A stretch of 64,000 bases of DNA from positions 14,193 through 78,192 of the forward strand of contig CALGLP010000018.1 of assembly GCA_937930175.1 (NCBI GenBank). Reading direction: 5' to 3'. Below the pieces are notes generated by a model. It was not told the DNA's origin and did not search any database. It was given only the letters and a program-made list of their open reading frames with translations. The DNA comes from an uncultured bacterium (lineage in GTDB: Bacteria > Omnitrophota > Gorgyraeia > Zapsychrales > Aceulaceae). Numbering within the stretch: position 1 is the stretch's first letter; each line of letters opens with the position of its first letter. Position numbers and translations under genes: made by a program. Positions 1,590 to 50,562 of this stretch are shown piece by piece.

Positions 1590-4229
1590 TTATTGGGTAG
1601 GAGCCGCTGATGTTATTAAGAGGCGGAGGTAAGGCTTGCTGCTGATATAGTGGTGGATGATGGCATTGATATCATTTTTGGTAACATTTGCAATATCGTT
1701 TTCATAGTTAAAAAGTCTGCTAAGATCAAGTCCGTAGAGGAGATATTGGGCCGCTCGATGCGCAAGGACATCGTTACGTTGTTTGCGTATCAGATTGCGC
1801 GTGATAAGCTCAGCCTTGGAATCTGCTATTTCTTTGTCCGTCACACCATCCTTTGACAGAAGGCTTAATTGTTCTTCAATGCCTTTGATAAGCTCATCCT
1901 GTTTTTCAACTGATGTTCCTGCGTAAATCCCAAAAAATCCCGTGTCATAGCTCGGTGAAGAAAAAAAGTTTTGGATATAGGTTAGGTTGTTCTGATTGCG
2001 GATGGTGTAGAGGAGTCGTCCGTTGTGGCCAGACATAATGGAACTTAAAATATCAAAGGCAAAGACAGCGTGATCATCTAAACGAATACCATGAAATCCA
2101 AAAAAGACCATCGCGCCTTGACGGTCGATGTTGATGGTGATCTTTTCTTGGGTCTGTAATGGCGTAATACCTTGCGCAGTGATAGGGGGCTTGAGAGTCG
2201 AGGCATGAAATTTTGAGAAGATCTTTTCCATCGTAGTGATCGCCTCAGTGGGATTGATATCGCCGCAAACCGCAACAACCATGTTTGTCGAAACTCCTAA
2301 ACGCTTGTAAAAATCAATAAGGTCTTTTCGCGTCAGAGCGGAAATGCTTTCTTTTGTTCCATTGGCACGTAAGCCGTAGGGGTGATTTTTATAGATCGCC
2401 GCTTTGAACTTTGTGAACCCATGAGCGAACATATTATCGTTTTCTGCTTGGATATCAAGAAGGCAGATCTTTTTGAGCTTGCTAAGCTCATCGTCAGGAA
2501 ATATTGGATCCTCAAGGATGGTAGCAATCGTTTTTAGAGTAAAAGAGAGATCGCTCTTGAGTGCTGTGGCGCCAAGACCAAAGCTGTTGTCATCGGAAAA
2601 GGCGCTGATATGTGCTCCACGATTTTCAAACAGGGAAGAGAGATCCTCGTTGTTGATTTTTGAATGAACAAGCATTTGCGCGCAGATCTTTGACAGGCCG
2701 TTGGTTTGAGGCGTTTCAGCCAAGAGCCCACCTTGAAAAAGGATGGTTGTTGAAAGCATGGGGATGAGGGTGTTTTGAATCGCGATAAGCTTGATACCAT
2801 TTTTTAGGGTTTTACTTTTCCAGGGCAAGCTTTGGGTGCGGACGTCCGTTGTTTGTTTTGCGTCGTCAGCGTGAAAAGTTTTTGGCACGAGAAGAGAATG
2901 ATTGGCGCTCTCAGGAGTTAAATATTTTTTAGCAATGCGTTGAATCTCATGCACGGTAACCTTGTCAACGGCGTCAATGTATTTTTGGGAGAATTGTGCA
3001 TCACCGGTGAGAAGCTTTTCAAGGCTTAACGATCCTGCGATCGCATCGAGGGAGGCATGTGAAGCGATATAGCTGGAGATGAGCAACGTTTTTGCACGTT
3101 TAAGTTCGAGGGATGAAATGGGTTTTTGTTGAAGTGCTGTGATTTCTTTAAAAATAAGGTGTTTAATCTCCCCTAAGCGCTCAGGACTCAAAACAGCGGT
3201 GATGGTAAACACGCCGTGGTTTAAGAGTGTGTCGTTGCCAACACTAATGGATTGGACAAGCTGTAATTCTTTAACAAGTTTTTTGTTAAGACGCGAGGCA
3301 TCGCCTTGGCCAAGAATGACAGCGATCAGATCTAAAGCAAAGATATCAGGATTTAAAATACCTGGGGAATGAAAACCAATCGCCAAGCGGCCCATATCCG
3401 CATCGAATGTTTCCTTTGATGAGCGCGGCATGGTCTGTGGCGGCTCTTCAGGAATATGAATCGGTGTATAGAAAGGAAGGCTCATGTCAGGTATTTTTTT
3501 CTCAATCGCCGTGAAGACATCCACTGCTTTGACATCGCCAGCGACAGCGAGGACCGCTGAGCTTGGGGTAAAGCGCGTGGCATAAGAGTGACGGACATCC
3601 TTGGGGGTGATCGCCTTAAATAAAAGGGGATAGCCAATAACCGGATGCTGATAGGGATGGATGCGAAAGGCTGTTTTCCATAAGAGTTCGTTGACCTTGG
3701 CGTCAGGATTATCATTGTAAAGGATAATTTCTTTGAATACGACATCCTTCTCTTTGATAACATGCTCATCAGAGAAGTTGGGAAAAAAGACCATCTCTTG
3801 AATGAGGTCAAGTGCTTGCAAAAGATTATCTTTGGGAACGGTGATGTAAACAGAAACCGTATCCGCGGAGGTTGAGGCGTTAAAAGTGCCTCCCAGCGTC
3901 TTGAGGATTTTTTCGATAGTGCCTTCTTGTGGATATCGACGTGAAGAGCGGATCATCAAATGCTCGATCAAATGAGAAATACCATAGCCGCAAAGCTCGC
4001 CTTCAGCTGCGCTTCCCGTTTTAAAAGCAATATTGAGCGCGGCTAATCCGCTGCCAGGATATTCTTGAACAACGCAGGTCAAGCCGTTTTCGAACGTTTT
4101 TTCAATAACAGGGACATCGTTGAGCTTGGGCAGGGATCCACACATGGCTGTAGAGGCCAGGGTAAAAATGCCAAAGATAAGGAAGGCCGTTGTTTTTAGC
4201 GCTTGGCGTATTGATCGAAAAAGGAACAT
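1590..4229 (-). CDS. secreted M16 family (pitrilysin/insulinase-like) zinc peptidase, tandem M16 + M16_C domains
   Basis: Inverted zinc motif HLIEH (GISHLIEHLMIRS) near the N-terminus, 879 aa two-lobed length, N-terminal signal peptide MFLFRSIRQALKTTAFLIFGIFTLAS. Confidence 0.8.
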   Translation of the reverse strand: MFLFRSIRQALKTTAFLIFGIFTLASTAMCGSLPKLNDVPVIEKTFENGLTCVVQEYPGSGLAALNIAFKTGSAAEGELCGYGISHLIEHLMIRSSRRYPQEGTIEKILKTLGGTFNASTSADTVSVYITVPKDNLLQALDLIQEMVFFPNFSDEHVIKEKDVVFKEIILYNDNPDAKVNELLWKTAFRIHPYQHPVIGYPLLFKAITPKDVRHSYATRFTPSSAVLAVAGDVKAVDVFTAIEKKIPDMSLPFYTPIHIPEEPPQTMPRSSKETFDADMGRLAIGFHSPGILNPDIFALDLIAVILGQGDASRLNKKLVKELQLVQSISVGNDTLLNHGVFTITAVLSPERLGEIKHLIFKEITALQQKPISSLELKRAKTLLISSYIASHASLDAIAGSLSLEKLLTGDAQFSQKYIDAVDKVTVHEIQRIAKKYLTPESANHSLLVPKTFHADDAKQTTDVRTQSLPWKSKTLKNGIKLIAIQNTLIPMLSTTILFQGGLLAETPQTNGLSKICAQMLVHSKINNEDLSSLFENRGAHISAFSDDNSFGLGATALKSDLSFTLKTIATILEDPIFPDDELSKLKKICLLDIQAENDNMFAHGFTKFKAAIYKNHPYGLRANGTKESISALTRKDLIDFYKRLGVSTNMVVAVCGDINPTEAITTMEKIFSKFHASTLKPPITAQGITPLQTQEKITINIDRQGAMVFFGFHGIRLDDHAVFAFDILSSIMSGHNGRLLYTIRNQNNLTYIQNFFSSPSYDTGFFGIYAGTSVEKQDELIKGIEEQLSLLSKDGVTDKEIADSKAELITRNLIRKQRNDVLAHRAAQYLLYGLDLSRLFNYENDIANVTKNDINAIIHHYISSKPYLRLLITSAAPTQ

Positions 4230-8102: not shown

Positions 8103-8232
8103 GATAGGCACCAAGTTTTCTGGAATTTGATAAAGATGTAATTTGGGCCGCCTGAGCTTTTCTGGCAAAATATTTAGAGAGCGCAGATAGGCACCAAGTT
8201 TTTTGGAATTTGATAAAGATGTAATTTGGGCC
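8103..8232 (+). repeat. 47-nt direct repeat (2 copies, 1 mismatch, period 83 nt) comprising the tRNA-Lys upstream region plus the first 5 nt (GGGCC) of the tRNA
   Basis: Copy 1 at 8103-8149, copy 2 at 8186-8232: gataggcaccaagtttt(c/t)tggaatttgataaagatgtaatttgggcc. Copy 2 runs into the mature tRNA 5' end. Confidence 0.85.
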
Positions 8233-8300
8233 ATTAGCTCACATGGTAGAGCAAGTGACTCTTAATCACTGGGTAGCAGGTTCGATTCCTGCATGGCCCA
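8228..8300 (+). tRNA. tRNA-Lys (anticodon CUU)
   Basis: Manual fold gives a 73-nt cloverleaf: acceptor GGGCCAT/ATGGCCC, D-arm GCTC-ACATGGTA-GAGC, anticodon stem AGTGA/TCACT with loop CTCTTAA (anticodon CTT), T-arm GCAGG-TTCGATT-CCTGC, discriminator A. CCA is not encoded. Confidence 0.85.
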
Positions 8301-44864: not shown

Positions 44865-45004
44865 CTTTTACCCTTAGATTATATTGATTTTCTCTTGTCT
44901 TAATGTCTCTTTAAGTCGTACGGTATTTTGAAAGGCGATAGCGTTGGGCGCTTTTTTATGTTAAGATTATCAAAATTCTAAAATACCTGATATGTGAGGT
45001 TTCT

Positions 45005-47644
45005 GTGGATTTAGCGTCTATCAAATCAACATTTCGAATCAAAAACAGACAGTTTTCTTATTTTAGTTTGAAAAAGTTCGCAAGCTTAGGTTTTGAAAAT
45101 AGCACAACATTACCTTTTTCTATTAAAGTGCTTCTCGAAAGTGCACTGCGTAATTTTGACAATTACAAAGTAACAGAGAAATTAATTACTACCATTGCTG
45201 GTTGGTCGGCCTACGCTGAAGAAAAAAAAGAAATTGTTTTCATGCCTGGTCGCGTTATCTTGCAGGATTTTACAGGTGTTCCTTGTATTGTTGATTTGGC
45301 CGCCATGCGTGACGGCATGAAAGCCTTAGGCGGGGATGATCAAAAAATCAACCCTAAGGTTCCTTGCGACCTTGTGATTGACCATTCGGTGCAAACGGAT
45401 TTTTATGGAAGTAAAAATGCTTTTGCAAAAAATCTTAAGAAAGAATTTCAGCGTAATTATGAACGTTATGAGTTTCTGAAATGGGGACAAAATACTTTTA
45501 AGAATTTTCGGGTTATTCCACCGGCAACAGGCATTATTCATCAAATTAATCTTGAATATCTTGCCCAAGGCGTTTTAGTATGCCATCTCAACGGTGAGCA
45601 TGTCGTTTATCCGGATAGCCTTGTTGGTACCGATAGCCACACAACCATGATCAATGGCCTGGGCATTGTTGGTTGGGGTGTCGGTGGCATTGAGGCCGAA
45701 GCTGTCATGCTTGGTGAACCCTTGAATATGCTGATACCTGAAGTTATTGGCTTTCATTTAAAAGGAAAACTTGGACATGGTGTGACACCAACAGATCTTG
45801 TTTTAACCATTGTTCAGATGTTGCGCAAAGAAGGCGTCGTTAATAAATTTGTTGAATATTTTGGTGAAGGCGTTCAGAATCTTTCGCTGCCAAGTCGTTC
45901 CATGATCGCCAATATGGCGCCCGAATATGGCGCGACCGTAGGATTTTTCCCAACCGATCAGAAAACACTTGATTACTATCGCTTTACAGGTCGACCCAAG
46001 GCACAGGTTGATTTAGTAGAATATTATTTAAAAGAACAAGGAATGTTTTATGCGCACACGACAGCACATAGTGTGCGCTATACTAAAATCCTAGAACTTA
46101 ATTTAAATTCCGTCGAGCCCTGTTTAGCCGGGCCCAAACGGCCACAAGATAGGGTTTCTTTGCACCAAGTGCCGGAGTCTTTCATCAAAAACTTTCAGGG
46201 CGTACACCCAAGCAATACCACGGGCTTAGTCAATGGGTCTGTTGTCATTGCCTCTATTACAAGTTGTACAAATACGTCAGATCCATTTGTTTTATTGGCT
46301 GCGGGAATGTTGGCCAAAAACGCTGTAAAACGAGGTCTCAAGGTTAAACCTTATGTTAAAACATCTCTTGCTCCAGGTTCCCGCATTGCTACAGAGTATC
46401 TACGGAAAGCTGGTCTTTTGCCCGATCTTGAAAAACTTGGATTCCATGTTGTTGGTTACGGATGCATGACCTGTATTGGTAATAGCGGACCTTTGGATAA
46501 AAATGTCGCAAAGGCGATCGAACAATCCCAATTGATCGTTGCTAGCGTCTTAAGCGGAAACCGAAACTTTGAAGGCCGCGTTAGCCCTTGGGTGAAGGCC
46601 AATTATTTGGCCAGCCCGCCACTGGTCGTTGCTTATGCGTTAGCGGGGAACATTACCGTCGATTTACGTTCCGAGCCTCTTGGGAAAGACCGTCAGGGTC
46701 ACGATGTTTATCTCCATGATCTCTGGCCTAAGGACCACGAAATTGAACTACTGATCCAGAAATGTATAAAACCATCAATGTTTCGTAACGCTTATCAGAA
46801 CGTATTATCAGGCACGACTGAATGGCGCAAAATCAAAGCAAAAGCTTCGGCGTTGTATCCTTGGAACAAACAAAGCACCTATATTCACCAACCACCATTC
46901 TTTATTAACATGAAAAAAAACCCTGAGCCGATTGTGGAGATTAAAGGTGCCCATATTCTGGCGGTCCTAGGTGATAGCATTACCACTGATCATATCTCAC
47001 CCGCGGGAGCCATCGCGATAGCTAGCCCCGCGGGAAAATATCTTCAATCGCTTGGCATTAAAGAAAAAGATTTCAATAGCTATGGTTCACGTCGAGGAAA
47101 TGATGAGATAATGACGCGCGGGACATTCGCCAACATTCGCCTTAAAAATCTTCTTGTGCCAGCCCATGAAGGTTCCTGGACAATTCACTTCCCATCGAAT
47201 CAAGAGATGGATATTTTTTCTGCTGCTAGAAAATATCAAAAACAGCAGATTCCTTTGATCATTTTTGCTGGAAAAGAGTATGGAACAGGTTCATCGCGTG
47301 ATTGGGCAGCCAAAGGAACAGCCCTTTTAGGCGTCAAGGCAGTGATTGCGCAAAGTTTTGAACGCATCCATCGAAGCAATCTTGTTGGCATGGGAATTTT
47401 ACCGCTTCAATTTAAAACAGGTGAATCGTTTATCTCCTTAGGGCTTCGGGGTGATGAGCGCTTTGATCTAGAAGGGCTTAATGCGACCATAAAGCCAAGA
47501 CAATTGATCAAGATGATTGCAATATCTGATCATCATCCATGCAAAGAATTTTCTGTTCAACTGCGTTTAGACACACAGGTTGAGATTGATTATTATGTCA
47601 ACGGTGGCATTTTAAAAACGGTTTTAAGAAATTTCCTAAAATAG
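45005..47644 (+). CDS. acnA: aconitate hydratase A
   Basis: LPFSIKVLLE, MINGLGIVGWGVGGIEAEA, SCTNTS, GCMTCIGNSG (Fe-S ligands), SGNRNFEGR; 879 aa. GTG start with GAGGT SD. Confidence 0.9.
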   Translation: MDLASIKSTFRIKNRQFSYFSLKKFASLGFENSTTLPFSIKVLLESALRNFDNYKVTEKLITTIAGWSAYAEEKKEIVFMPGRVILQDFTGVPCIVDLAAMRDGMKALGGDDQKINPKVPCDLVIDHSVQTDFYGSKNAFAKNLKKEFQRNYERYEFLKWGQNTFKNFRVIPPATGIIHQINLEYLAQGVLVCHLNGEHVVYPDSLVGTDSHTTMINGLGIVGWGVGGIEAEAVMLGEPLNMLIPEVIGFHLKGKLGHGVTPTDLVLTIVQMLRKEGVVNKFVEYFGEGVQNLSLPSRSMIANMAPEYGATVGFFPTDQKTLDYYRFTGRPKAQVDLVEYYLKEQGMFYAHTTAHSVRYTKILELNLNSVEPCLAGPKRPQDRVSLHQVPESFIKNFQGVHPSNTTGLVNGSVVIASITSCTNTSDPFVLLAAGMLAKNAVKRGLKVKPYVKTSLAPGSRIATEYLRKAGLLPDLEKLGFHVVGYGCMTCIGNSGPLDKNVAKAIEQSQLIVASVLSGNRNFEGRVSPWVKANYLASPPLVVAYALAGNITVDLRSEPLGKDRQGHDVYLHDLWPKDHEIELLIQKCIKPSMFRNAYQNVLSGTTEWRKIKAKASALYPWNKQSTYIHQPPFFINMKKNPEPIVEIKGAHILAVLGDSITTDHISPAGAIAIASPAGKYLQSLGIKEKDFNSYGSRRGNDEIMTRGTFANIRLKNLLVPAHEGSWTIHFPSNQEMDIFSAARKYQKQQIPLIIFAGKEYGTGSSRDWAAKGTALLGVKAVIAQSFERIHRSNLVGMGILPLQFKTGESFISLGLRGDERFDLEGLNATIKPRQLIKMIAISDHHPCKEFSVQLRLDTQVEIDYYVNGGILKTVLRNFLK

Positions 47645-47652
47645 GAGGGGGC

Positions 47653-47874
47653 ATGCCCAACAAACACCATTCCGCAGCAACCATCAAAAAGATTCGCTTA
47701 GCACAGATGGGAAAGAATAATTCGTTTTATGGCCGAAAACACACCCGAGAAACATGCAGGCAAATTTCTCGTAAAACATCAGGAAAAAATAATCCGATGT
47801 ACGGCAAAAGACATTCACCAGAAGTGCGACGTAAAATCAGTCTTGCGATTCGACGATCTCGTCTACACAAATAA
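47653..47874 (+). CDS. NUMOD3-repeat-only small DNA-binding protein (homing-endonuclease DNA-binding module without a nuclease domain)
   Basis: Three tandem HS.E.R.KIS..(G) units: HHSAATIKKIRLAQMGKNNSFYG / RKHTRETCRQISRKTSGKNNPMYG / KRHSPEVRRKISLAIRRS. Very strong SD AGGAGGGGG 1 nt before the ATG. Confidence 0.55.
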   Translation: MPNKHHSAATIKKIRLAQMGKNNSFYGRKHTRETCRQISRKTSGKNNPMYGKRHSPEVRRKISLAIRRSRLHK

Positions 47875-47878
47875 GGAA

Positions 47879-48445
47879 ATGAAGAAGAACTTTCCGTTGT
47901 TTGTCTGGCATAAGCGTTCTGGAAGAATGTTGTCCTCTAAAGTTCTTCAGACGAGGGAGAGTCCCCGGGGAGCAGAAAAAAAGAAAAATCTACCCGAAAG
48001 AACTCCCGCAGAACAATTTCTTAAGAAACTTCAGACTCAAATACGCAAGACCTTTATTTTATTTTTATTTTATTTTCTGTGTAGTTCTTATCTTTTAAGT
48101 GCTCAAGGGTGCTCCAAGAAAGAAAAGGTGAAGCCTCCTCTTGGGAAATGGAAAAGAGAAGCAACTTATATTAACGGCAAGTTCAGTCATGAGCGCCGGG
48201 CAACCCTAACGTTAAAGAAAACATTGTTCATCCTTGAAGAATCAACGTGTGAGACGCGAGGAATCGTATCCTACCAATCGCGCGCAATGATTTGGCATGT
48301 TCAAGAAACAGATTGTTATGGAGTGTCTATTCATGATGAAATTGACTATGGCTACACGATCGACCCAGGTGATGGAAGTCTAAAAATCTTCCGTAATAAT
48401 TTTTTTTATGACGAGATCCGCGATGTTTATCGAAGAATTCGATAA
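47879..48445 (+). CDS. hypothetical protein (basic N-terminus, one hydrophobic segment)
   Basis: AAGGA-ATG start directly after the NUMOD3 ORF. The 47729 upstream extension overlaps the NUMOD3 ORF out of frame and is rejected. No recognisable motifs. Confidence 0.35.
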   Translation: MKKNFPLFVWHKRSGRMLSSKVLQTRESPRGAEKKKNLPERTPAEQFLKKLQTQIRKTFILFLFYFLCSSYLLSAQGCSKKEKVKPPLGKWKREATYINGKFSHERRATLTLKKTLFILEESTCETRGIVSYQSRAMIWHVQETDCYGVSIHDEIDYGYTIDPGDGSLKIFRNNFFYDEIRDVYRRIR

Positions 48446-48455
48446 ACACGTTTGA

Positions 48456-48881
48456 ATGATAGGTATGATAAGAAAAATATTATTAATCCCACTCATTGTT
48501 TTTTGCATTAGCAGGGTAAGCGCGGAACAATCCGTTGATGATTTAAAAAATCAAGCCTTCGCAAATATTACCCGTGCAAGACATATTATTGCCTATGCGC
48601 AGAAGCTGATCGAAACTTCTCCTAGCCGTCAGGCCGCAGAACATTGTGTCCAACTTTATCTTGAAGCCGCTCAACTCTACGGCAATGCCGCGCGACTGTT
48701 AAGAGCCATGGGATCCAATTACGTCCCACAAGGCATTATTGATGAATTTGCCAAAGGAGAGAAAAATTGTCTTAAAATAGTCGATGATATTCGACGATTC
48801 TTAAATAGAGGAGAAATCGTTGGCACACATAAAGACACGATGCAATCGCTTTTAAAAAAATTAAAGGAAACATCACCATGA
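48456..48881 (+). CDS. hypothetical secreted/periplasmic helical protein
   Basis: Signal peptide [16 protein letters not shown]|EQ; alpha-helical remainder. Confidence 0.45.
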
Positions 48882-49087
48882 AATGCCCTAATAAAGAAAG
48901 AAATTTAACACTGTGCACCTGCACTTATGCAGGCTGTGAAAAGCATGGCCTATGCTGTGAATGCCTTCATTATCATCGCAAGAAAGGTGCCTTGCCGGCT
49001 TGCTATTTTCCAGCTGATGCAGAAAAAACCTACGATCGATCCATTGAATATTTTATTGAAATCTATCAAAAACGAAAACATTTGTAG
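48878..49087 (+). CDS. small Cys/His-rich protein (putative metal-binding)
   Basis: 69 aa with C.{4}C.C.{4}C.{5}CC.C.H.H.{7}C spacing; ATGA translational coupling to the upstream ORF. Confidence 0.45.
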
Positions 49088-49161
49088 GCTAAGTTAAAAA
49101 AATCTTGAATGCCGTTTTGGCCTATGTTACAGTAAACACTTCAAACAACCTTAAGGTCGCT

Positions 49162-50562
49162 ATGGGAACCACACTCTACGAAAAAATTTGGAACAGTCAT
49201 TTAGTTCATGCCGAAAATGGCCAGGCATCGCTTATTTACGTTGACCGTCATCTCATGCACGAAGTGACATCCCCGCAAGCTTTCGAGGCGTTACGCCTGA
49301 AGGGGCGCCAGGTACGTTCAAGGGCAAGAACCTTTGCGGTTATGGACCACAACGTTCCAACGCGAGCAAAAGATTTAAGCTTTGCTGATGCCATTTCACG
49401 TACACAGATGGAAGCCTTGGCAAAAAATTGTCATGATTTTGGCGTCAAACTCTTTGATTTTATGCATCCTGATCAAGGCGTTATTCATATTATTGGTCCT
49501 GAGCTTGGCATTACCTTGCCAGGGATGGTCATTGTCTGCGGAGATTCACACACCGCGACCCATGGCGCCTTTGGATCTCTAGCTTTTGGGATCGGCACAT
49601 CAGAAGTTGAGCATGTGTTAGCGACGCAAACATTGCAGCAAAATAAATCAAAAACCATGCGCATCACTGTTGATGGTAAGATCTCTAAAGGTGTAACAGC
49701 AAAAGATATTATTTTATATATCATTGGGAAGATAGGGACTGATGGCGCAACAGGATATATTGTTGAATACGACGGTAGCGCGATTAGGCATTTATCCATG
49801 GAAGGACGCATGACCATTTGCAATATGAGTATCGAAGCAGGAGCCAGAGCGGGCATGATCGCGCCAGATGAAACAACCTTCAATTATCTCAAAGGAAAAG
49901 ATTTTGCTCCCACGGAGAGCCACTGGGATAGCGCGTTGGCCTCTTGGAAAACTTTAAAAAGTGATCTTGATGCTAAATTCGACAAAACGGTAAATATCGA
50001 TGCTACAGATATTCGCCCGCAAATTACCTGGGGCACTTCACCTGAGCAAGTTGTTGCGATTGACGCAAGTGTTCCCGATCCAAAAGAGTTTAGCGATCCG
50101 GTGAAGCAAGAAGCTGCCAAAAAGGCCTTAGCCTACACGGGCCTGGTTCCCGGAACGCCCATGACATCAATTAAAATTGATATTGTCTTTATTGGTTCTT
50201 GCACAAATGGAAGGATTGAAGATCTGCGTGCGGCGGCAAGCATTGTGAAAAATCAAAAAGTTGCTAAACATGTTCAGGCGCTAGCTGTTCCAGGATCTGG
50301 ACGTGTCAAACGCCAAGCTGAGCAAGAAGGACTCGACAAGATCTTTAAAGATGCTGGTTTTGAATGGCGCGAGCCTGGTTGTTCGATGTGTTTGGCCATG
50401 AATGAAGACAGGGCCGCTCCTGGCCAACGCTGCATCTCAACAAGTAATCGCAATTTTGAAGGCCGCCAGGGTAAGGATAGTCGAAGCCACCTAGCAAGCC
50501 CTGAAATGGCCGCGATCGCTGCTATCAAAGGCCATGTCGCTGATATACGGGAGTATCTCTAA
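49162..50562 (+). CDS. leuC: 3-isopropylmalate dehydratase large subunit
   Basis: [35 protein letters not shown] aconitase-family Fe-S ligands; about 466 aa from ATG 49162. Confidence 0.9.

Follow-up and report, generated by a model that had tools for sequence, protein, structure and literature searches.

NUMOD3 is known as a minor-groove-binding alpha-helical module of the homing endonucleases I-TevI, I-HmuI and I-BmoI, and three predicted NUMOD3 minor-groove repeats have been described in I-BmoI (PMC3664794). Both I-TevI and I-TevII span the minor groove when they bind, and the DNA-binding domain of I-TevI on its own binds DNA and can act as a repressor. Here we describe an open reading frame (ORF) of 73 amino acids (aa) built of three NUMOD3 units, located at positions 47653-47874 on the + strand of a 64,000-nucleotide (nt) stretch of contig CALGLP010000018.1 from an uncultured bacterium of the phylum Omnitrophota; the whole of this stretch is referred to below as the window. 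The ORF lies directly downstream of acnA. A first-pass annotation, made from the DNA letters alone, had offered two explanations for it: either it is what remains of a homing endonuclease or an intron-associated element once lodged between acnA and the genes downstream, in which case the following ORF could be the degraded remainder, or it is a domesticated small DNA-binding protein. The evidence presented here favours the second.

The transcription factor WhiA/DUF199, which descends from a LAGLIDADG homing endonuclease, provides a precedent for domestication of this kind (PMC3384342). In both cases a homing-endonuclease scaffold would have been reused as a host DNA-binding factor. WhiA, however, stems from a different endonuclease family and has kept an inactivated nuclease fold, whereas only accessory DNA-binding repeats are present in the 73-aa protein. 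In the titles and abstracts of those papers in the searched library that mention NUMOD3, no study of a stand-alone bacterial NUMOD3 protein is apparent; a plant gene with a NUMOD3 domain is described in one of them (PMC11201747).

Results

A stand-alone NUMOD3 gene follows acnA

The ORF starts with ATG, ends with TAA and encodes a protein (MPNKHHSAATIKKIRLAQMGKNNSFYGRKHTRETCRQISRKTSGKNNPMYGKRHSPEVRRKISLAIRRSRLHK) with a computed mass of 8.6 kDa and an isoelectric point (pI) of 11.9, carrying about +19 in net charge. A profile search with the Pfam family PF07460 (NUMOD3) matched the protein with E=9.4e-25 and 86.7 bits, compared to a gathering cut-off of 20.4, and the match was recovered again when positions 47560-48520 were scanned in all six frames. 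The NUMOD3 unit pattern, a short helix H-S/T-x-E-x-x-x-K-I-S with a linker G-K-N-N-P-x-Y-G, is present in tandem, and these features of its sequence place the protein in the NUMOD3 domain family. No further NUMOD3 copy was found elsewhere in the window, and the exact 73-aa protein is also present on several public contigs.

An 8-nt gap separates the stop codon of acnA from the start of the small gene on the common strand, and the AGGAGG Shine-Dalgarno sequence overlaps the acnA stop codon TAG (47642-47644). Among the 52 long ORFs of the window, just 2-4 have a full GGAGG upstream, so the ribosome-binding site of the small gene is unusually strong for this genome. Promoter and terminator scans remained at shuffle level and placed nothing, in particular no terminator-like site, in the gap that separates acnA from the small gene; the two genes are probably co-transcribed and translationally coupled. 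With respect to both the NUMOD3 identity of the ORF and its very strong translation signal, these results bear out the first-pass annotation.

The small gene is conserved in place and under purifying selection

In addition, we compared the acnA-leuC interval with related genomes. In nine further Omnitrophota loci (L005, L008, L017, L018, L019, L020, L021, L023 and L027), acnA is likewise followed directly by the syntenic small gene, with a length of 72-76 aa; L023 belongs to Ca. Aceula lacicola and L027 to Ca. Aceula meridiana. Because very little separates L008 from L018 (dS 0.12), these loci correspond to eight or nine distinct lineages. The shared gene order is radical-SAM, exoIII, (PBP), acnA, NUMOD3, (hyp188), hyp141, DUF6485, leuC, leuD, aroC and SDR. 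Identity across the nine loci is 65-77% for acnA and 49-81% for the small NUMOD3 protein. All ten syntenic genes retain a start codon and nine of them the upstream GGAGG, the remaining one (L020) having GGAGA, while the gap between acnA and the NUMOD3 gene is mostly 8 nt, with a single ATGA overlap. Homologues of 72-75 aa from public sequences, with 54-80% identity, are likewise all NUMOD3-only.

Selection was measured by Nei-Gojobori counting over orthologue pairs. Most pairs were saturated at synonymous sites, with a proportion of synonymous differences (pS) of 0.7-0.9, while the corresponding nonsynonymous proportion (pN) was 0.12-0.25 within the closer clade; the unsaturated pairs gave dN/dS values mostly between 0.07 and 0.26. 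Purifying selection acts on the small ORF, which is a real coding gene that has been vertically inherited in place, and its position after acnA is conserved across a family-level clade.

These observations bear directly on the idea that the ORF is what is left of a homing endonuclease or intron-associated element in decay, with the ORF at 47879-48445 as its degraded rest. NUMOD3 is otherwise typical of homing endonucleases, and TIGR01453 (group I intron endonuclease; model positions 96-157) matched the 73-aa protein in part, while PHROG homing-endonuclease families matched it weakly. However, the TIGR01453 match, at 36.1 bits, is below the cut-off of 56.05 and runs through the repeat region of that model only. 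Searches of the protein itself with Pfam and NCBIfam revealed no nuclease domain, in agreement with the first-pass annotation. Neither the GIY-YIG, HNH or LAGLIDADG remnants that it had suggested looking for nor any trace of Vsr appeared in the six frames of 47560-48520 (Pfam, E up to 10), where NUMOD3 was the sole match. Rfam at gathering scores revealed no group I or group II intron in the whole window, where its single hit was a tRNA at 8228-8300 (+), and matched no family in 46800-49300 at E up to 1. There were no direct repeats in 46500-49500, only two weak and short inverted pairs, and the GC content is flat across the region (0.40-0.42) without a composition anomaly.

As the related genomes carry the small gene at the matching place and under purifying selection, the insertion or remnant reading fails on a refuting condition that the first-pass annotation had itself set, and we regard it as scarcely credible. 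Status as a decayed remnant or pseudogene was rejected on the low pN, the saturated pS and the steady length of 72-76 aa in the syntenic clade; identity as a homing endonuclease was likewise rejected, the gene having neither a nuclease domain nor an intron or a sporadic, mobile context.

The ORF at 47879-48445 (hyp188 below) does not fit the role of a degraded remainder either. As first reported, it starts at 47879 and escapes classification, without a family match in Pfam, NCBIfam or PHROG, but it has orthologues of 39-55% identity in six lineages, with pN of 0.09-0.45 and pS of 0.60-0.88. Its conserved N-terminus, FVWHKRxGKMLSSK, looks cytoplasmic and is followed by one hydrophobic segment and then an invariant, lipobox-like Cys, with more conserved Cys residues toward the C-terminus. 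We conclude that hyp188 is a separate conserved gene whose product is probably membrane-anchored or a lipoprotein. It was undetected by tblastn in the Aceula-type loci L021, L023 and L027. The ORF list additionally holds an entry at 47729-48445 (238 aa), which is an in-frame upstream extension of hyp188 overlapping the NUMOD3 gene.

Three tandem units resemble part of the domain with which I-TevI binds DNA

The repeat structure was examined with a profile made from unit 2 alone, using ten homologues, and with 1000 shuffles each for units 1 and 3. Besides unit 2 (residues 29-52), this profile found unit 1 (residues 5-28) with an independent E-value of 1.5e-7 and unit 3 (residues 53-65) with 1.6e-5, and in neither case did any of the 1000 shuffles score as high. 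The three tandem NUMOD3 copies noticed in the first-pass annotation are real, with the qualification that the third is a half unit: units 1 and 2 comprise 24 residues each, and unit 3 consists of the helix and a basic tail without the GKNNxxYG loop.

AlphaFold2, run on the family alignment, predicted helices at residues 8-21, 32-42 and 56-72 with extended linkers between them and without a globular core. Confidence was moderate, with a predicted local distance difference test score (pLDDT) of 74 and a predicted template modelling score (pTM) of 0.34, and fold searches were uninformative for such an extended chain. Positions of the DNA-contact type, namely K13, I14, K61 and I62 together with H30 and H54 that precede helices, are invariant across the family.

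Among PDB sequences, hmmsearch aligned positions 7-46 of the family profile with residues 31-69 of the domain by which I-TevI binds DNA (1i3j_A; SAYTCSKCRNRSGENNSFFNHKHSDITKSKISEKMKGKK) at E=1.3e-5, pairing the family stretch GKNNSFYGRKHTRETCRQISRKTSGKN with GENNSFFNHKHSDITKSKISEKMKGKK of I-TevI. Both have the linker G-x-N-N-S-F-(F/Y), followed by the helix H-(S/T)-x-x-T/x-K-x-K-I-S. In I-TevI, by contrast, one unit is flanked by a zinc finger and a helix-turn-helix and tethered to a GIY-YIG nuclease, whereas the protein described here has three units only; in addition, I-TevI is intron-encoded and mobile, whereas the 73-aa gene is chromosomal and syntenic. With its three NUMOD3 repeats the protein resembles I-BmoI.

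Given its strong positive charge, the protein could also be imagined as an RNA- or ribosome-associated basic mini-protein that binds rRNA or mRNA rather than DNA. We consider this improbable, since nothing but the NUMOD3 DNA-binding module and the DNA-bound domain of I-TevI showed significant similarity to it, and no ribosomal or RNA-binding family in Pfam or NCBIfam was matched.

The short three-unit form is centred on Omnitrophota

We also determined how widely the short form occurs. Scans of our collections relied on two exact peptide patterns, GK[NK]NSFYG and G[KR][NK]NPMYG, so that copy number and phyletic range are minimum estimates. The pattern scan revealed one locus each in 13 Omnitrophota-type assemblies, with ORFs of 70-84 aa. 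Outside the acnA context, Omnitrophota loci L013/L025, L016, L022, L024, L026, L028, L035 and L045 carry the gene, and homologues in such other contexts (46-63% identity) are surrounded by housekeeping genes that are unrelated to one another, following dodecin, preceding PilZ or having as neighbours pyruvate kinase, glutamate synthase with uracil-DNA glycosylase, type III glutamine synthetase, a C-terminal processing peptidase, a DEAD-box helicase or inositol monophosphatase. Neighbour clustering identified no recurrent neighbour outside the acnA clade, apart from two loci with type III glutamine synthetase at a distance of up to 2 kb, and no mobile-element genes lie beside the non-acnA Omnitrophota copies. 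At L045 (JBFZAD010000105.1, 5962-6213) the homologue matches as two pieces in different frames, reflecting either a frameshifted pseudogene or an assembly error.

The hosts found in the genome scan are Candidatus Omnitrophota, together with a few metagenome-assembled genomes (MAGs) labelled Planctomycetales or Planctomycetia. Two of these, L019/L011 (CAZAOD010000015.1) and L021 (CAZYOA010000002.1), are titled 'uncultured Planctomycetales' and have Omnitrophota gene order and 65-80% protein identity, while L022 (CAYWPX010000005.1), titled 'Planctomycetia', has only the small NUMOD3 gene in common with Omnitrophota MAGs. The labels of all three are probably wrong.

In the genome collection, 14 of the 44 complete ORFs were at most 100 aa long, 13 of them being the Omnitrophota-type loci and one a 54-aa Prevotella ORF. 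None of the 75 complete relatives on viral contigs was this short, and 71 exceeded 200 aa; on metagenome contigs it was seven of 71, at least five of which are sequences already seen in Omnitrophota loci. A representative search returned 30,291 proteins with NUMOD3-like repeats (E up to 1e-3), of which the best 150 included three shorter than 100 aa. The 72-84-aa three-unit form appears to be a discrete, Omnitrophota-centred family.

One member of this family already has a name in a public database. HNV86951.1 (P0010) from Candidatus Omnitrophota, at 72 aa, has three units and 54% identity to the 73-aa protein (E=4.8e-11), and differs in its genomic context, lying after a dodecin gene. Its NCBI name, 'NUMOD3 domain-containing DNA-binding protein', was assigned automatically and from the domain only. 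The 73-aa protein itself is an uncharacterised member of a known domain family.

The nearest long relatives carry an N-terminal GIY-YIG/SegE or a C-terminal DUF559/Vsr nuclease, and some have the helix-turn-helix of I-TevI. Over the repeats, phage SegE-like, Vsr and DUF559 endonucleases reach up to 56% identity and contain 3-7 NUMOD3 units; they differ from the 73-aa protein in being 135-360 aa long, mostly with a nuclease domain, often on viral contigs and in some cases multi-copy. Some longer relatives (93-352 aa) are also NUMOD3-only, and nuclease-free NUMOD3 proteins are thus not unique to Omnitrophota. In a Thaumarchaeota MAG (PAWD01), NUMOD3-repeat ORFs of 119-140 aa occupy at least four loci (L030, L040, L047 and L048), compared to a single locus per Omnitrophota assembly, and the 135-aa ORF at L030 is NUMOD3-only by Pfam.

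The abundance of NUMOD3 nucleases on viral contigs, with at least 221 confirmed relatives, raises the question of whether the small protein could serve as a decoy or immunity factor that occupies the chromosomal targets of phage NUMOD3 homing endonucleases and so blocks cleavage. It does match the PADLOC 'HEase' model through its NUMOD3 part. However, that match spans the DNA-binding repeats only, no defence genes lie nearby, and the long vertical conservation under strong purifying selection is unlike the diversification of an arms race. A decoy function would accordingly be very unlikely.

Genes surrounding the NUMOD3 gene

The coordinates of the features discussed here are collected in Table 1. 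The small ORF had initially been placed between acnA and leuC. The upstream side of this placement is exact, as acnA is its direct neighbour on the same strand, whereas on the downstream side three genes (47879-48445, 48456-48881 and 48878-49087) intervene before leuC. The second of them encodes a conserved 141-aa protein with an N-terminal segment resembling a signal peptide and without a family match. The third, the start of which overlaps the preceding stop by 4 nt, encodes a Cys-rich 69-aa DUF6485 protein that is 74-85% identical across the clade.

Table 1. Positions in the window of the NUMOD3 gene, its repeat units, its translation signal and the two adjoining genes
Feature	Coordinates	Strand	Basis
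acnA, aconitate hydratase, 879 aa	45005..47644	+	Pfam Aconitase, Aconitase_C
Shine-Dalgarno sequence AGGAGG	47643..47648	+	4 nt before ATG; read directly from the sequence
Coding sequence of the stand-alone NUMOD3 protein	47653..47874	+	ORF list, Pfam PF07460, purifying selection
NUMOD3 unit 1, residues 5-28, HHSAATIKKIRLAQMGKNNSFYGR	47665..47736	+	unit-2 profile; AlphaFold2 helix 8-21
NUMOD3 unit 2, residues 29-52, KHTRETCRQISRKTSGKNNPMYGK	47737..47808	+	unit-2 profile; AlphaFold2 helix 32-42
NUMOD3 unit 3, residues 53-73, RHSPEVRRKISLAIRRSRLHK	47809..47871	+	unit-2 profile; AlphaFold2 helix 56-72
hyp188, conserved protein of unknown function, 188 aa	47879..48445	+	orthologues, pN < pS

Upstream of acnA the loci vary in gene content. 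In L005-L009 and L011, a small gene for a ferredoxin of 81-91 aa is found on the minus strand immediately upstream of acnA (for instance at 3010-3255 in L005 and 2985-3260 in L008), and comparison with positions 44865-45004 of the window showed that it is absent there and in L017, where only a 140-nt AT-rich spacer is found. This presence or absence amounts to a small gene-content polymorphism beside a conserved operon. Elsewhere in the window, the ORF at 1590-4229 has the same length as acnA (879 aa) but is unrelated to it. Nearly all long ORFs in positions 1-64000 are on the + strand and separated by very short intergenic gaps, a layout that fits a compact genome with long runs of co-oriented genes.

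Discussion

The 73-aa ORF belongs to a conserved, functional and nuclease-free Omnitrophota gene. Its most likely origin is a homing endonuclease whose DNA-binding part was domesticated; domestication is the alternative that the first-pass annotation had set beside the remnant. As to what the protein does, our preferred reading, which we hold to be about evenly balanced between right and wrong, is that it may act as an abundant architectural, nucleoid-associated-like protein binding the minor groove of DNA. The free protein would be extended and probably disordered. On DNA, its three predicted helices would be placed in or along the minor groove over about two turns, joined by the GKNN(S/P)xYG linkers.

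Four features suggest an architectural rather than an operon-specific role: the protein is without the zinc finger and the helix-turn-helix to which I-TevI owes added specificity, it is extremely basic (pI 11.9, +19), its conserved Shine-Dalgarno sequence is unusually strong where GGAGG is otherwise rare, and outside one clade it has no recurrent gene partner. By analogy, the protein is similar to AT-hook and H-NS/Lsr2-class proteins in being small, very basic and non-globular, with predicted minor-groove contact and a strong translation signal. It differs from them in that it has neither sequence nor fold kinship with these proteins and no evident oligomerisation domain. It may thus work like minor-groove architectural proteins without being a member of any of these classes.

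Several points weigh against an architectural role. That the protein binds DNA, is abundant and lacks sequence specificity is inferred. In one clade the 8-nt coupling to acnA is conserved, and this could reflect an operon-specific function. The single locus per assembly and the restriction to Omnitrophota are lower-confidence findings, as they depend on the two exact peptide patterns used in the scans. Finally, the boundary of the family is not sharp, because NUMOD3-only proteins of 93-352 aa exist elsewhere.

The coupling to acnA leads to the alternative that the protein is a sequence-specific regulator, whose three helices would read a site of about 20 bp and repress or activate a small regulon, possibly the acnA-leuCD-aroC operon. 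The tight coupling to acnA, conserved in ten syntenic genes, fits an operon-linked role, and the invariance of the DNA-contact-type positions across the family also speaks for a regulator. However, the homologues with 46-63% identity are located in unrelated contexts, beside dodecin, PilZ, pyruvate kinase, peptidase or DEAD-box helicase genes, and the protein has neither of the two additional DNA-binding elements that accompany NUMOD3 in I-TevI. Minor-groove contacts, moreover, discriminate little between DNA sequences, and a very strong Shine-Dalgarno sequence is unusual for a low-copy regulator. A regulatory function is possible, and we regard it as the less probable role compared to an architectural one.

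What is new in these results is the evidence for long-term domestication and for a phylum-centred family of three-unit mini-proteins. They also hold a lesson for annotation, in that a NUMOD3-only ORF beside an unclassifiable ORF is no evidence of a dead mobile element. A three-helix minor-groove binder of 73 residues could serve as a minimal scaffold to study and engineer the recognition of DNA by NUMOD3.

If DNA binding holds true, the gene would be a clean natural case of homing-endonuclease accessory DNA-binding repeats persisting alone as a host gene through a long span of evolution. More tentatively, it may encode a lineage-specific chromatin or nucleoid protein of Omnitrophota, abundant, composed wholly of three NUMOD3 modules and exapted from a selfish element, which would make it an undescribed class of bacterial nucleoid-associated protein. 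For the uncultivated phylum Omnitrophota, DNA binding by this protein would provide a candidate for a small minor-groove nucleoid protein or regulator.
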